64,000 nucleotides of DNA, from the NCBI GenBank assembly GCA_963664705.1, contig OY761556.1, forward strand, positions 5,952,001-6,016,000, written 5' to 3'. How positions within the stretch are numbered: position 1 is the first letter of the stretch; each line of letters begins with the position of its first letter. The notes under the pieces were generated by a model, which made no database searches, was not told where the DNA came from, and was given only the letters and a program-made list of their open reading frames with translations. Below are positions 1-4,899 of the stretch, one piece after another. The position numbers and the translations under genes were made by a program. This DNA comes from Acidobacteriota bacterium (GTDB lineage: Bacteria; Acidobacteriota; UBA6911).

Positions 1-3
1 GCG

Positions 4-540
4 ATGAGGAAAGCACTTTATTTTTTGGGCATCCTGGATGATCGGGATATTGACTGGATAATCCGCAATGGCAGAAAGATGACGCTGAAGCCTGGAGCGC
101 AGCTGATCGAAGAGGGGAAGCCGACGGATTGGCTTTACTTCGTGCTCGAAGGATCCTTCGTGGTCTACACTGCGGCCGCGTCCAGAATCGCAGTTCTCAA
201 AGCGGGAGAGGTGGTAGGAGAAATTTCCTTCGTCGATTCGCGTCCGCCCACCGCCAACGTGCGCGCGGAAACCGAATCCAGAGTCGGCGCGATTCAGCGC
301 GATATGTTGATGCAACGGCTGCAGGAGAACGTCGGGTTTGCAGCTCGCTTCTATCAATCGCTGGCGGCTTATCTGGCGGACCGCCTGCGAACCACCGTGG
401 GAACCCTGGGGGTTCAGAAACTGAATCTCGATGAAAGTATCGAAGACACGGATGAGCTGGCCCCGCATCTGCTCAGCAATTTGTCGATGGCCGGAACCCG
501 TTTTACCGACATGCAGAGACGCGAGTGGGGGAGAGGTTAG
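4..540 (+). CDS. Cyclic nucleotide-binding domain protein, resembling the bacteriocin-type transport-associated family (TIGR03896-like)
   Basis: cNMP-binding motifs (LIEEGKP..LYFVLEG, GEVVGEISFVD.RPPTANVRA). The N-terminus MRKALYFLGILDDRDIDW resembles proteins found beside NHLM/bacteriocin ABC exporters. No HTH, and it sits next to a double-Gly precursor. Confidence 0.75.
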   Translation: MRKALYFLGILDDRDIDWIIRNGRKMTLKPGAQLIEEGKPTDWLYFVLEGSFVVYTAAASRIAVLKAGEVVGEISFVDSRPPTANVRAETESRVGAIQRDMLMQRLQENVGFAARFYQSLAAYLADRLRTTVGTLGVQKLNLDESIEDTDELAPHLLSNLSMAGTRFTDMQRREWGRG

Positions 541-790
541 AGACGAACACAGCGCCGGGCGAGGGAAATCGCATATAGGAGTTACGCTCAATGCGGCAGC
601 CGCGTGCGTCATTCCAATAACCAAAATATTATTGTTTTGCCCGGAGCACTCAAGTAACATCCACGGCTATGTTTGGAAAGTCTGGAGCTTCGCGCCAGTT
701 AATCTTTCAAAATAGCAGCTGACGACCCCGGCAGGCTCAAGGGATTCAAGTGTTGATTTACCATTCATGATCGGACGAAGGAGAGAGAAT

Positions 791-952
791 ATGGCAGACG
801 AGAAGAAAGAAAAGAAGCCCATCAAGATCACCATCGATGACCAAGGAGCGGTCAAGCTCGATCAGGAACAGCTCGATGAAGAACAATTGAGTGCTATTGC
901 CGGTGGGATCGAGATCATCCGGAATGTCACGTGCCGTATAACAAGAAGATAA
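791..952 (+). CDS. RiPP precursor peptide, 53 aa: double-glycine leader (..QLDEEQLSAIAGG) plus 14-aa core IEIIRNVTCRITRR
   Basis: AAGGAGAG RBS before ATG 791. The leader matches the (E/D)LxxxxLxxxxGG pattern cut by C39 peptidase transporters. Directly upstream of two radical SAM genes. Confidence 0.85.
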   Translation: MADEKKEKKPIKITIDDQGAVKLDQEQLDEEQLSAIAGGIEIIRNVTCRITRR

Positions 953-1019
953 TAAATTCCGAAGCCGATGCTGTATTCAATGCACATTGTCTGCAGCTCG
1001 CAGCTTAAAGGCATGACAT

Positions 1020-1050
1020 CCCTTGCGGGGAGATGGTTTCCCCGCAAGGG
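1020..1050 (+). promoter_or_regulatory. Perfect 12-bp stem-loop between the precursor and the first maturase (mRNA-stabilising or attenuating hairpin)
   Basis: CCCTTGCGGGGA-gatggtt-TCCCCGCAAGGG, with no U-tract after it. Confidence 0.6.
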
Positions 1051-1067
1051 CAACCTCGCGCGTAAGA

Positions 1068-2069
1068 ATGAAAGATGTGAATTTCCCATCCCCTGCAGAA
1101 CTGGGGGCAGCCCTGAACCCCAGCGCCCTCTACCTGATGGTCTTTCCGACCGAAGACTGTAATCTCCGATGTACATATTGCTATGAGGATCACAAGCCCG
1201 GCAGCATGAGCCCGTCAGTGCTTGGCGGGCTGGAACGGCTGATTGAGCGCAGAATGAGAGACCTCAGGCATATCCGTCTGTCGTGGTTTGGAGGAGAGCC
1301 GCTGCTGGCAAAAAATGTTGTTTTCGAGTTGGCCGAGTTTGTCCAAAAGTGCTGCGCTCAGTCCGGCTGCGTTCACCTGCCGGGCAGCGTCACGACCAAT
1401 GGTTACCTGTTGACTGCGGATGTTGCGCAACGGCTGATAGCGGCCGGACAAAAGCAATTTCATATTTCGCTCGACGGGATTGGGGAAGCCCATGATCATA
1501 GCCGTCCCCTTGTTTCGGGCCGCGGTTCCTTCGAACGAATCTGGGCCAACCTGCATGCGCTTCGATGCAGCGCACTGGAATTCGAGCTTGTTTTCCGAGT
1601 TCACTATGGATTTCCCGCGAGGGAGGCTACCGAGGCCTTGTGCCGGCATTTGAATGCGGATTTTGGGGGCGATCGCCGGTTCCGCGTTACGCTGCAGTCC
1701 ATAGCCGATCTCGGGGGGGAGAATACCGGGACGTTTACACCGTTGTCTGTTACGGAAGCGTTGTGCGCTTCTGACGTTTTTTCGGCGCTCATGCCCGATC
1801 TTGTGGTCAGCGACAACAAAACAGCTGATTATTGCATATGCGAGGCGGCACGGCCCAATCACCTGCTGATCCGGCCTGACGGACGGGTTTGCAAATGCGC
1901 CGTGAATCTGAATGATCCACGCAATGAGGTGGGCAGAATCACCGAGGATGGCAGAATCGAGTTTAACCAGCAGCGGCTTCAGCCCTGGTTCAGAGGATTT
2001 GAACAACTCGACAAGGATATCCTCCTATGTCCCTTCACTTGGGTTTGCGAAACCCCGCTGGAACAATGA
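1068..2069 (+). CDS. Radical SAM peptide maturase with a C-terminal SPASM/Twitch-like Cys domain
   Basis: PTEDCNLRCTYCYE (CxxxCxxC), WFGGEPLL, TTNGYLL, ISLDG. C-terminal YCICEAARPN..IRPDGRVCKC..C. ATG 1068 preferred over TTG 1023, which lies inside the hairpin. Confidence 0.88.
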   Translation: MKDVNFPSPAELGAALNPSALYLMVFPTEDCNLRCTYCYEDHKPGSMSPSVLGGLERLIERRMRDLRHIRLSWFGGEPLLAKNVVFELAEFVQKCCAQSGCVHLPGSVTTNGYLLTADVAQRLIAAGQKQFHISLDGIGEAHDHSRPLVSGRGSFERIWANLHALRCSALEFELVFRVHYGFPAREATEALCRHLNADFGGDRRFRVTLQSIADLGGENTGTFTPLSVTEALCASDVFSALMPDLVVSDNKTADYCICEAARPNHLLIRPDGRVCKCAVNLNDPRNEVGRITEDGRIEFNQQRLQPWFRGFEQLDKDILLCPFTWVCETPLEQ

Positions 2070-3964
2070 CTGGTAAACGAAAGCGATCGTCAAACTCGAC
2101 CAGGCTCCCCAAGGTGGCACTTGTAGCTGCCCCTTGGCAAACCTTCTGTCGCCCGTCCATCCAGCTTGCCTGTCTCAAAGCTTTTGCTGAAAAACACGTC
2201 CCAGGCGTCAGGGTTGAAACGCATCATCTCTATCTGGCTGTCGCTGCCGGCCTGGGCCGCCCGCAATATGATGCGGTTTCCTGCTGGGACTCTGTTATCT
2301 GTGAATCGCTCTATGGCAATCTGCTTTTTCCATCGAAAAGATCGGACGCCGAGAATGCGCTCCGGCAGATGGTCGGGCGAAGGGCTTTGGCACGCATCCC
2401 ATATGGGCCGCTGATGAAACGGATCCGTGCCGCGACGGATTCCTACGTGGATAGTGTGGATTGGTCCGAATATAGCCTGGTTGGATTCTCCATCTGCCTG
2501 GCTCAACTCGCCTCTTCGCTCTACTGCATCCGGCGGATCAAGCGCCGGTATCCGGATCTGCCGGTGGTTATCGGAGGTTCCTCTTACGGCCGCGAGTCCT
2601 TGCAGCGCATTCTATGCGGTTTTCCCGAGGTGGACATTGCCGTTAATGGTGAGGGGGAAATCCCTTTTGGCGACCTCCTGGAACTGATTTCGAAGGGCGA
2701 GGGCCTGGATGCGATGCGAGCCGTGCCCGGTGTTGTCACAAAAGAGTCTGTGTTTGAGGCACCGATCGCCTGCCGCCAGTTGCCTTCCCTGGATCAGCTT
2801 CCGTATCCCGATTTTACGGATTATTTTGAGCAGCTGAAAACCCTGGCGCATGCAAAACCCTTTTATACCACTCTGCTGATCGAGTCATCGAGAGGTTGCG
2901 CATGGCGTTCAAGCGGAAGTTCAGCGAATCCTGATCGGCCGGGATGCGCCTTCTGCGGTCTGAACCGGACCTGGCAAGGTTATCGTTACAAGTCGGCCGA
3001 GAGAGTAGCGGCGGAGGTTGATGCCCTTTCCGATCAGCATGGAATTCTTGCGCTGGCATTTACGGATAATCTTTTGCCTGTTTCCGCATCGGTTCGCCAT
3101 CCCGTCGAGCTCAAGGCCCTGAACAAAGATCTCAGCCTCTTTGGAGAAATGCGCGCAAACATCACCCGTCCCGTGAGCCGCGCATTGGCGGATGCCGGTT
3201 TCGAGTGCGTTCAGCTGGGAATCGAATCGCTCAGCACGCCGCTTCTCGCAAAGATGAAAAAGGGAACCACTGCGATTCAAAATCTGCAAGCCCTGAAACT
3301 ATGCGAAGAGCAGGGTATTGTCGCGCTGTGGAACCTGCTGATCGAGTTTCCCTCCAGCGACAGGCACGATATCGATGAAACCCTGCGCGTGATGCGCTTC
3401 GCGATGCATTTCAGGCCGTGTAAAATTTCTGTTTTCGAGCTTGAACCCGACAGCATGGTTGCGACTGATCCGCCGGCCTATGGCATTCCCAAAATCATAG
3501 AAAATCCGCTGTTGCACTCGCTTTTCCCTCCCGGGTTTTCGCGTTCACTGCCTCGGCTCTTCCTGGACTATCGCGGGCGAAAGGAACAGAAAAAGCTTTG
3601 GGCGCCTGTGCGTCGCCAGGTAAGGCTTTGGAATCGCGAGTACCAGCTGCTTCAGGAAAACCTGCCACTCGGACCGATCCTGTCCTACAGCGATGGCGGC
3701 TCTTTCCTGTTGATCAGAAAAAAACGGCCGGGGGCTCCGGCAACGGTATATCGCTTTGGGGAGGCGAGCCGGGCACTTTATCTCTTCTGCCACGAACACC
3801 AGTCCTTTGCGGCGATTGCTCGCGCATTCAGCTCCATCCGGGAAGATCATCTTCGCCAGCTGCTGCACTCGATGGTGAACCAGCATCTCATGTTTACGGA
3901 AGCCGACCGATATCTGAGCCTTGCCATCCGCGATAACTGGTCTCGCGACAGGAGACAGGAATAG
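2066..3964 (+). CDS. Cobalamin-dependent RiPP maturation radical SAM C-methyltransferase (TIGR03975/PoyB-PoyC-like)
   Basis: N-terminal B12-binding domain (PSIQLACLKA, LVGFSICLAQ, VVIGGS, GEGE). SRGC..CAFCGLN, QLGIESLS, MKKGTT. C-terminal winged-helix-like tail ending YLSLA. ATGA overlap with the upstream radical SAM gene. Confidence 0.88.
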   Translation: MTGKRKRSSNSTRLPKVALVAAPWQTFCRPSIQLACLKAFAEKHVPGVRVETHHLYLAVAAGLGRPQYDAVSCWDSVICESLYGNLLFPSKRSDAENALRQMVGRRALARIPYGPLMKRIRAATDSYVDSVDWSEYSLVGFSICLAQLASSLYCIRRIKRRYPDLPVVIGGSSYGRESLQRILCGFPEVDIAVNGEGEIPFGDLLELISKGEGLDAMRAVPGVVTKESVFEAPIACRQLPSLDQLPYPDFTDYFEQLKTLAHAKPFYTTLLIESSRGCAWRSSGSSANPDRPGCAFCGLNRTWQGYRYKSAERVAAEVDALSDQHGILALAFTDNLLPVSASVRHPVELKALNKDLSLFGEMRANITRPVSRALADAGFECVQLGIESLSTPLLAKMKKGTTAIQNLQALKLCEEQGIVALWNLLIEFPSSDRHDIDETLRVMRFAMHFRPCKISVFELEPDSMVATDPPAYGIPKIIENPLLHSLFPPGFSRSLPRLFLDYRGRKEQKKLWAPVRRQVRLWNREYQLLQENLPLGPILSYSDGGSFLLIRKKRPGAPATVYRFGEASRALYLFCHEHQSFAAIARAFSSIREDHLRQLLHSMVNQHLMFTEADRYLSLAIRDNWSRDRRQE

Positions 3965-4119
3965 GTCGGGCCGCCAAAATCATGCGCATTAGGCCGAACC
4001 CTGTTTGGGTGAATTGATTTACTGGGAAGTTGGTTGGCGCGCTAATATGTAAGAGGATGGATCGAGCGCTCACTGAATCGGCATCACGCGTCCCCAGTGA
4101 CGCTTGAATCAGGGAGGAG

Positions 4120-4899
4120 GTGGTAGTGCGGCTACCGTCGATTTTCTTCGGCCATGGCAATCCAATGAATGCGCTGAGTGAGAGCGGCTACGGCGCGGAA
4201 TGGCGGCGCCTGGGCGAGGAGATTCCAAGGCCCAATGCCATTGTTTGTGTTTCTGCGCACTGGTTCGTTGGAGGAACCCGTGTTACCGGCAATAAGTTTC
4301 CTGAGACCATTCACGATTTTGGCGGATTTCCAGAGGAGCTCTACCGGATCCTCTATCCGGCGCCGGGGGATCAGGGCCTGGCCGGAAGGCTGCAATCTGC
4401 TCTGGCGCCCCTGGATGTAACGCTCGATGAGACCTGGGGTCTGGATCATGGGACATGGTCTGTGCTCCGGCATGTGTATCCGGATGCCGACGTCCCGGTC
4501 GTCCAGTTGAGCATTGATGCGAGAAAGCCGGCGTCATTCCATTTTGAATTGGGCCGGCGGCTGGCGCCTTTGCGGAGCGAAGGGATTCTGATCATGGGCA
4601 GCGGCAACCTGGTTCATAATCTTCATCATTATGCTTGGGGACAGCCGAAAGCCGAGCCTCGCGCCTGGGCGGTTCGTTTCGAGAATAGGGTTAGGGCGGT
4701 GCTTTCATCGGGAGAGTTTGAGCCGCTGATTCGTTATGAAGAGCTGGATCCGGATGCCAGGTTATCTGTTCCGACGCCGGATCATTATCTGCCGCTGCTT
4801 TATGTTCTTGGTACGCGTCAGCCGGATGAGCCCGTCAGCTATCCGATAGAGGGCATTGAGGGTGGCTCGCTTTCCATGTTGACGGTATGTGTCGGCTAA
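4120..4899 (+). CDS. ygiD: 4,5-DOPA extradiol dioxygenase (LigB family)
   Basis: FFGHGNPMNAL, SAHW, TIHDFGGFP, WGLDHGTW, GSGNLVHNL, PTPDHYLPL. GGAGGAG RBS before the GTG start. Confidence 0.9.
   Translation: MVVRLPSIFFGHGNPMNALSESGYGAEWRRLGEEIPRPNAIVCVSAHWFVGGTRVTGNKFPETIHDFGGFPEELYRILYPAPGDQGLAGRLQSALAPLDVTLDETWGLDHGTWSVLRHVYPDADVPVVQLSIDARKPASFHFELGRRLAPLRSEGILIMGSGNLVHNLHHYAWGQPKAEPRAWAVRFENRVRAVLSSGEFEPLIRYEELDPDARLSVPTPDHYLPLLYVLGTRQPDEPVSYPIEGIEGGSLSMLTVCVG

Follow-up and report, generated by a model that had tools for sequence, protein, structure and literature searches.

A predicted acidobacterial peptide pathway combining a compact radical SAM enzyme of a widespread family with a B12-binding radical SAM enzyme

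Gene cluster and export cassette

We analyzed a window of 64,000 nucleotides from an Acidobacteriota bacterium (assembly GCA_963664705.1, contig OY761556.1, positions 5,952,001 to 6,016,000 of the forward strand), which begins with a gene cluster for a predicted RiPP (a ribosomally made peptide with post-translational modifications). The cluster consists of seven co-oriented genes, three upstream of the window and four within it. The latter had been proposed in a previous sequence-only reading of the window, and all four were found in place on the plus strand: (i) a gene for a cyclic nucleotide monophosphate (cNMP)-binding protein of the nitrile hydratase leader peptide (NHLP) transport cassette (4-540; 178 aa), (ii) a precursor open reading frame (ORF) of 53 aa (791-952) with a GGAG-containing purine tract upstream, (iii) the gene for a radical S-adenosylmethionine (SAM) enzyme of 333 aa (1068-2069), whose start was assigned to the ATG aligning with orthologs, and (iv) the gene for a B12-binding radical SAM enzyme of 632 aa (2066-3964) that belongs to TIGR03975. 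The last two genes overlap by ATGA at 2066-2069. A separate contig agrees with bases 1-4100 at every position, although it may itself be the source of this DNA. The precursor comprises a 39-aa leader (791-907), which carries the family leader motif and ends with Gly-Gly, and a predicted 14-residue core, IEIIRNVTCRITRR (908-952 with the stop codon), that contains the motif [IV]-I-R-x-x-x-C. The core residues considered below are Arg5 (920-922), Asn6 (923-925), and Cys9 (932-934).

The cluster begins approximately 5.7 kb 5' of the window with three co-oriented genes that score above the respective NCBIfam cutoffs: a TIGR03794-type gene (OY761556.1 5946257-5946883; 208 aa; 204 bits versus 156), a TIGR03796 gene for a C39 peptidase/ATP-binding cassette (ABC) protein (OY761556.1 5946890-5949094; 1097 bits versus 853), and a TIGR03797 gene (OY761556.1 5949096-5951975; 942 bits versus 709). 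The cNMP gene starts 28 bases 3' of these export genes. The TIGR03796 protein has Cys and His motifs that we take to be those expected for a C39 peptidase. According to Haft, Basu, and Mitchell (PMC2887384), this trio exports NHLP precursors, which are cleaved at Gly-Gly, and its presence is in line with the earlier remark that C39 peptidase ABC transporters cut double-Gly leaders.

The cNMP-domain protein was likewise recovered, with the restriction that it covers only the second half of TIGR03896. Among 160 related loci (the best 80 from metagenomes and the best 80 from genomes, out of more than 570 confirmed), its homologs were found in 11 and an NHLP-type exporter in 15. Half-length TIGR03896 proteins are present in loci L083, L084, L085, and L123, and full-length ones in several cyanobacterial loci. 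The TIGR03794-type adaptor is shorter than the 421-position profile, its central region being apparently missing; L084 (298 aa) and L111 likewise contain short forms, which may be a natural variant.

Radical SAM enzyme family and its precursors

The radical SAM enzyme is part of a family that is widespread, spanning at least six phyla, and has no NCBIfam name. Of 7,997 candidates scored with the family profile, 1,176 reached E <= 1e-30; the profile matched two of the 51 genomes of the host's family, the second match being a longer enzyme with an RiPP recognition element (RRE) and a SPASM domain. The enzyme itself scored below every NCBIfam cutoff, as did six distant homologs and 29 precursors from related loci and searches. 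Its best match, TIGR04463 (126 bits, E = 1.4e-36, cutoff 525), starts at profile position 78, that is, without the RRE.

The enzyme carries the radical SAM motif CxxxCxxC at residues 31, 35, and 38, and no N-terminal RRE. Outside this motif, C258, C277, and C321 alone are invariant among 107 homologs, other Cys columns being conserved in at most 45%; all three are present in 151 of the 164 enzyme ORFs of the loci, and the remaining ORFs are cut or gapped. With only these three auxiliary cysteines and a SPASM (PF13186) score of 14.3, below the threshold of 21.5, the Cys-rich C-terminal SPASM/Twitch domain assigned by the sequence-only reading was not recovered. Cysteines of the second auxiliary cluster (AuxII) are missing where longer relatives carry them, and four of these relatives have kept an N-terminal extension (RRE) together with extra SPASM cysteines. 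In a FastTree phylogeny, 37 short enzymes form a single clade separate from the longer relatives (support 100, branch 0.82).

Several observations point to thioether chemistry. CteB is the best match among solved structures by both sequence and Foldseek. The ranthisynthase CrpC, a TIGR04463 enzyme and the nearest characterized relative, was shown in 2026 to install ranthionines; its first auxiliary cluster (AuxI) is predicted to have three Cys ligands (C333, C352, C403) and an open iron, AuxII being dispensable (PMC13692751). The distance between C258 and C277 is 19 residues, equal to that between the first two AuxI cysteines of CrpC. For CteB and SkfB, binding of the substrate thiol at an open auxiliary site has been described (PMC8326336). 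We regard the radical SAM enzyme as a putative minimal thioether-forming enzyme, with C321 as the presumed third cluster ligand; that it forms a thioether is probable.

Alternatively, the enzyme could carry out non-thioether chemistry, such as oxidation or epimerization, with the substrate Cys serving as an auxiliary-cluster anchor or for a later disulfide. Such a role would be compatible with the structural comparison, where fold similarity fails to separate anSME, CteB, and ChlB, and the lineage-specific residues His42, His132, and Glu259 could support other chemistry. It is rendered unlikely by three features: a partner residue is found at fixed spacing to Cys across the family, the best profile matches are thioether enzymes, and the core has only one Cys and lacks aromatic residues, so that neither an internal disulfide nor cyclophane chemistry is possible. 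Four points nevertheless weigh against the thioether assignment: (i) VIA-align ties the three named structures, which represent different reactions, at Z 20-21; (ii) C321 lies in a low-confidence part of the AlphaFold model (pLDDT, predicted local distance difference test, 83; C-terminal 16 residues below 50) and aligns without gaps to an AuxII Cys of the longer relatives; (iii) the enzymes of this family all stay below every NCBIfam cutoff; and (iv) the acceptor of CrpC follows the Cys, opposite to the order in this family (PMC13692751).

A search with the 53-mer precursor returned the peptide itself and two orthologs, 85% and 75% identical (three of four candidates); a fourth close precursor, 77% identical and with Arg at the position of Asn6, came from cluster look-up. 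Judged by three orthologs at 75-85% identity, the precursor is a genuine gene, beyond chance. Only this precursor is credible among the three hits of a genome-wide regular expression for double-Gly leaders. It has no match to TIGR03793 or TIGR03798, and neither TIGR03793 nor PF07862 has a match at E <= 1 anywhere in the genome; thus no NHLP or Nif11 leader was found, as noticed earlier for the precursor. The leader motif is hydrophobic-x-hydrophobic-D-x-x-G-x-hydrophobic followed by an acidic stretch, and an ELSDEEL-like ending precedes Gly-Gly. Because the precursor profile matched the host genome alone among 137 genomes of the class, the cluster is rare among the host's kin.

Two apparent similarities of the precursor were rejected: a tblastn match of the core at OY761556.1 1655396, which is the start of an unrelated 455-aa protein, and a likeness of the leader to the C terminus of the radical SAM enzyme itself, which is a generic hairpin (hhalign probability 10%). 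A degenerate pattern for the leader/core junction had no matches in viral contigs. In the region OY761556.1 1650174-1661854, a gene whose protein has three Cys-rich repeats in tandem is followed by genes of multiheme cytochrome and NHL-repeat-like type (labels assigned by reading).

In the wide family, a leader-only profile seeded with 26 hand-picked leaders retrieved 115 small ORFs, 109 of them within 1.5 kb of an enzyme gene and 104 of these unique. Precursors are adjacent to the enzyme in 94 of 161 loci, our own locus included. The leader ends with GG or GA in 61 of the 104 precursors, and Cys is present in 103 of the cores. NxxC was found in 79 of 104 cores, compared with 27.7 +/- 4.1 in 1000 shuffles (maximum 43). 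Relative to the 304 Cys of these cores, Asn is located at -3 in 142 cases (32.6 expected) and at -4 in 66 (31.5 expected); all these counts are descriptive, the kin being not independent.

A different motif characterizes the lineage of the peptide studied here. A profile of eight close precursors searched against 1.84 billion representatives gave 28 hits; nine longer ones were dropped as repeat-like matches, and the 19 hits of at most 100 aa were kept, eight with I-R-x-x-x-C and three with NxxC. When three other close precursors are added, 11 peptides contain 14 motifs, in which -6 is always Ile or Val, and -3 is Gly in nine, Asn in three, Ala in one, and Arg in one. NxxC cores, whose recurrence the sequence-only reading had proposed to check, dominate in the wide family and are a minority in the peptide's own lineage, and NxxC is not supported as the defining motif: sister precursors have Gly, Ala, or Arg in place of Asn within [IV]-I-R-x-x-x-C. 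Neighboring lineages have Ile, Met, or Gln at -3.

Changes in the enzyme accompany this motif change and lend it independent support. Residues H/Y42, H132, A278, and N280 are shared by 11 of 24 close enzymes (H42/H132/A278/N280 in the enzyme of the cluster); at these positions, F, Q, T, and A are found in the wide family. Eight of these 11 N280 enzymes can be paired with a precursor, and all eight precursors carry the motif. One pair comes from the genome studied here, one (P0011 with P0259) from the consecutive accessions MEJ2033106.1 and MEJ2033107.1, and six from an identical longest contig (37,398; 3,779; 6,264; 2,861; 1,688; and 7,649 bases). Enzymes with A278 but not N280 accompany Asn-free cores of other kinds. 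The strength of this correlation is reduced by the circumstantial nature of pairing through a shared longest contig and by the construction of the motif, in which Ile and Arg are invariant by definition and for which the search profile contained four IEIIR sequences. The profile was weighted equally to Asn, yet Asn was not recovered. The same leader also precedes a third type of core, C-[RQ]-I-Q-[TS]-x-x-x-G-C-x-M, in P0257, P0263, P0267, and P0273; P0257 shares a longest contig of 2,857 bases with enzyme P0017.

Since the lineage conserves [IV]-I-R-x-x-x-C with mostly Gly at -3, and the enzyme residues covary, Asn6, and with it NxxC, is probably incidental in this core. A family-wide Cys-Asn link was dropped for this peptide after the results on the lineage motif and enzyme residues. 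Non-alpha chemistry like that of CrpC could not use Gly at -3, which would make Arg at -4 the natural acceptor; retention of the -3 register would require a link to the alpha-carbon. On these sequence grounds, Arg5 is narrowly favored as the acceptor, and functionalization of Arg side chains by radical SAM enzymes has been described for RrrB, WprB, and XncB. Provided that a thioether is formed, Arg5 has somewhat less than an even chance of being its acceptor, the alpha-carbon at -3 is a tentative candidate, and the beta-carbon of Asn6 and any other acceptor are each improbable.

A ring closed at the -3 alpha-carbon would be of the sactionine type, with Gly, Ala, Asn, or Arg as acceptor and Ile-Arg as a recognition element only. 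It would agree with -3 being the commonest register of Asn in the wide family, with the nine Gly residues of the sister motifs, which offer alpha-hydrogens only, and with the side chains found at -3 in neighboring lineages. Taken as a complete reading it is doubtful: the nearest characterized relatives by profile, CrpC, PapB, and CteB, are non-alpha thioether enzymes, and the enrichment of Asn at -4 argues that the -4 register is used too. The link put forward by the sequence-only reading, an NxxcB-like thioether between Cys9 sulfur and the Asn6 beta-carbon, would match the dominance of NxxC in the wide family and its presence in three of the four close precursors; NxxcB forms such a link and tolerates Ala, Gln, and Asp (PMC9389541). 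We consider it very improbable here, given that Gly, present in most sister motifs, cannot form a beta-thioether, that the 77% identical precursor has Arg at this position, and that the lineage has replaced Q132, T278, A280, and F42, which are near-invariant in NxxC-associated enzymes.

Some loci of the wide family show additional variation. In L083 (9628-13487), two enzyme paralogs belong to one cluster, an A278 copy after an Asn-free precursor and a T278 copy after an NxxC precursor, with four more double-Gly peptides between them, which makes this locus a natural specificity test. Cys-free double-Gly peptides with a shared terminal TED-x-x-Y-x-G and no Pfam match are encoded in L083 (11645-11863) and L084 (11790-11951), from two phyla; in L084, a 2-oxoglutarate (2OG)-Fe(II) oxygenase gene is located behind the radical SAM gene. 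In L077 (6900-7232), L078 (241-561), and L123 (6950-8471), the enzymes lie near NHLP-/Nif11-like long-leader precursors with short Asn/Cys cores, and thus the family may accept several leader types. The locus on the Nostoc punctiforme plasmid NC_010632.1 (L223, 6030-7981) is a cultured representative of the wide family; two small genes before its radical SAM gene are annotated as 'type A2 lanthipeptide' despite their having this radical SAM gene as the modifying gene next to them, possibly a misannotation. N. punctiforme WP_012413210.1, with its neighboring peptides, exemplifies an NxxC pair of the wide family. Genes for a JmjC oxygenase (five loci), an S8 peptidase (three), and DUF7005 (four) recur locally (examples are L006:9055-10197, L005:1833-2993, and L103:6764-7978), which suggests modular tailoring.

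B12-binding radical SAM enzyme

The second radical SAM enzyme scored 350.4 bits with TIGR03975 (cutoff 281.85), in line with its earlier assignment, and contains PF02310 (below the gathering score) and PF04055. The top Foldseek matches of its model (pLDDT 91) are OxsB, TsrM, and TokK. Residues 539-605 form a confidently modeled C-terminal domain with three strands followed by three helices, an RRE-like topology; it has no PqqD/RRE match by sequence profile, and DUF5825 clusters are among its look-alikes in the Atlas (score 0.92). The cluster motif is CX15CX2C in the four closest rows, the ortholog P0123 being without the second Cys; CX13 was found in 40 of 52 nearest relatives and CX7 in 32 of 36 distant ones. 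Identity to this enzyme reaches 64-75% in no more than three proteins, and the next are 43% identical. In the host genome, a single TIGR03975 gene and a single candidate precursor were found; it also has a cobalamin synthase gene.

Relatives at 40% identity occur once each in 24 of 251 genomes from the phylum of a Desulfuromonadales bin (Desulfobacterota). The B12 enzyme is nested inside these stand-alone genes in a tree of 51 rows (quick search) and sister to them in a tree of 20 rows, with a long stem (0.66-0.81 across trees). A grouping of the B12 enzyme with two enzymes that the host's kin encode in NHLP/Nif11 clusters is rejected by the approximately unbiased (AU) test (p = 6e-54). By phylogeny, it groups with stand-alone Desulfobacterota genes and not with proteusin-cluster methylases. 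The stand-alone TIGR03975-like clade (L199-L222) is single-copy and mostly has CX13CX2C; it was found in about a tenth of the phylum genomes sampled, and its substrate is possibly a protein.

The earlier proposal of a peptide with both a Cys thioether and C-methylations is upheld in its first part, a thioether-forming enzyme being probable, and weakened in its second, the relatives of the B12 enzyme being stand-alone. Precedents for the methylation exist. In the clavusporins, a 13-mer is beta-methylated by MpcB at Val, Ile, Thr, and Pro, an example of a B12 enzyme methylating a short peptide that has no NHLP leader (bioRxiv 10.1101/2024.01.23.576971); PoyC methylates Ile and Val (PMC11285071). 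The core ranks first among the 104 wide-family cores both for Ile+Val and for Ile+Val+Thr. This argument from composition is weakened, because the sister precursors are also Ile/Val-rich before Arg, and their clusters are not known to hold a B12 gene. A complex prediction for the B12 enzyme with the precursor gave a score of 0.00, which is not evidence either way. On balance, we find it fairly likely that the B12 enzyme acts on this peptide.

It could also be a passenger, act in trans on another protein, or be decaying, in which case the product would be only a thioether-cyclized peptide, whatever its acceptor. The pairing of the two enzymes with a peptide, as proposed earlier, recurs for the radical SAM enzyme and not for the B12 partner: no B12 homolog at E <= 1e-8 was found in the 160 related loci, many of which are short and which do not include the closest lineage. 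The stand-alone relatives show no adjacent precursor: within their 1.5-kb flanks, the double-Gly regular expression found nothing, no match of the leader profile had an E value under 1.1, and the ORF lists, inspected for 16 of the 24 loci, contained no leader-like ORF; TIGR03796 is above cutoff in none of the 24 genomes, five having weaker matches. Moreover, the lineage of the B12 enzyme has lost a 94%-conserved Trp (W279) and has a longer Cys loop, in addition to the Cys missing from P0123. Against a passenger role stand the gene overlap and the probable co-location of the genes in a second assembly: the longest contig is 37,398 bases for each of the orthologs of the enzyme (79%), methylase (71%), and precursor (75%), a hint at a second copy of the cluster, probably on one metagenome contig. 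Of 78 conserved columns, the B12 enzyme has also kept 74, compared with a median of 77 in the nearest group, and the long stem would fit a change of substrate. We leave the passenger role a substantial chance, well short of even.

A gene for a LigB-type 4,5-DOPA extradiol dioxygenase (NF007914 above cutoff; 4120-4899, co-oriented) is located about 160 bases downstream of the B12 gene. It is absent among the top 40 recurring neighbor clusters of the family loci, no link was found, and it is treated as unrelated to the cluster. Scans for promoters (6 versus 6.6) and terminators (18 versus 14.4) did not rise above the level of chance.

Predicted pathway and comparison with known systems

The proposed pathway would start with recognition of the leader through its conserved motif, without an RRE. 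C258, C277, and C321 would hold a single auxiliary Fe-S cluster with an open iron to which the substrate thiol binds; a deoxyadenosyl radical would then take a hydrogen from the acceptor residue, and a thioether would be formed from Cys9 to a residue at -3 or -4, with Arg5 the most likely one. The B12 enzyme would probably beta-methylate Ile, Val, or Thr residues of the core, followed by cleavage after Gly-Gly and export by the upstream NHLP-type ABC cassette. The expected product is a small, cationic, amphipathic peptide that may serve in competition or signaling. Calculated masses are 1742.01 Da for the core without modification, 1739.99 Da with the thioether, and 1754.01 Da with the ring and a single methyl group. 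Whether the ring and methylation occur on the same peptide, whatever the acceptor, we judge an even call. The most specific version, in which a lineage of miniature enzymes switched the acceptor from Asn to Arg, forming a side-chain Cys-Arg thioether, and one branch recruited an orphan B12 enzyme for beta-methylation, is unlikely to be correct in all its parts; if true, it would give the orphan B12 clade its first defined substrate.

Each chemical step has precedent, and the new elements are the enzyme family, the motif switch, and B12 recruitment. In the literature searched, which mostly excluded subscription journals so that absence from print is not established, no description of the enzyme family, motif, or combination was found, and a Cys-Arg side-chain thioether linkage was not found in the papers searched. 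The atlases of radical SAM RiPPs and their supplements could, we presume, already list the enzyme family; the one literature supplement searched for it gave no match. A single experiment on this large, multi-phylum family without a curated name would annotate many clusters. An enzyme of 333 aa with neither RRE nor second auxiliary cluster is a compact test of leader recognition and turnover and a candidate tool for peptide cyclization. The core-motif change that tracks four enzyme positions constitutes a natural experiment on acceptor choice, and the cluster ties a short substrate to a B12 clade that is elsewhere stand-alone.

Comparison with known systems revealed partial similarities to each. 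With CrpC/TIGR04463 (PMC13692751), the cluster shares a three-Cys first auxiliary cluster of like spacing and a Cys-containing substrate encoded alongside; however, the enzyme described here is far below the TIGR04463 cutoff and lacks the RRE and AuxII cysteines, its substrate is a short exported peptide whereas that of CrpC is a large protein, and the partner residue precedes the Cys here and follows it in CrpC. The streptococcal NxxcA/NxxcB system, in which Asn-beta is linked to Cys by a thioether (PMC9389541, PMC8326336), likewise has Cys three residues after Asn, as in this peptide and most wide-family cores; NxxcB differs in having its own SPASM domain with two auxiliary clusters (PMC11851443) and a quorum-sensing context, and Asn at -3, a minority state among the sister motifs, is not conserved here (the NxxC family was compared by description). 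The clavusporin system (MpcB/MpcC; bioRxiv 10.1101/2024.01.23.576971) also combines a B12 radical SAM enzyme with a short Val/Ile/Thr-rich peptide; the cluster described here has no separate DUF5825 gene, S9 peptidase, or major facilitator superfamily (MFS) transporter, its B12 enzyme has CX15CX2C where MpcB has CX7CX2C, and the cluster additionally encodes another radical SAM enzyme and a core with a Cys. Proteusin clusters (PoyB/PoyC; PMC11285071, PMC2887384) share the TIGR03794/TIGR03796/TIGR03797 cassette, the Gly-Gly site with an ELSDEEL-like ending, and a TIGR03975 enzyme. They differ in the leader, which here has 39 aa and no NHLP/Nif11 match, in the epimerase gene, which was not seen in this cluster, and in the B12 enzyme, which stands apart from those of NHLP/Nif11 clusters of the host's kin by the AU test.

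The cluster thus falls outside three established groups: the proteusins by its leader, the SPASM maturases by its cysteines and profile score, and the NxxC family by its unconserved Asn. The SPASM maturases (TIGR04463, TIGR04085) have seven or eight Cys for two auxiliary clusters, unlike the enzyme described here. Its likeness to ranthipeptide and sactipeptide systems consists in a Cys and a partner residue at fixed spacing in the core; the exactly three invariant auxiliary Cys, of which C321 is poorly modeled, may hold an auxiliary cluster with an open site as in those systems. By analogy, the pathway predicted from the genes would be a ranthipeptide/sactipeptide-like one with clavusporin-like tailoring and a proteusin-type exporter.

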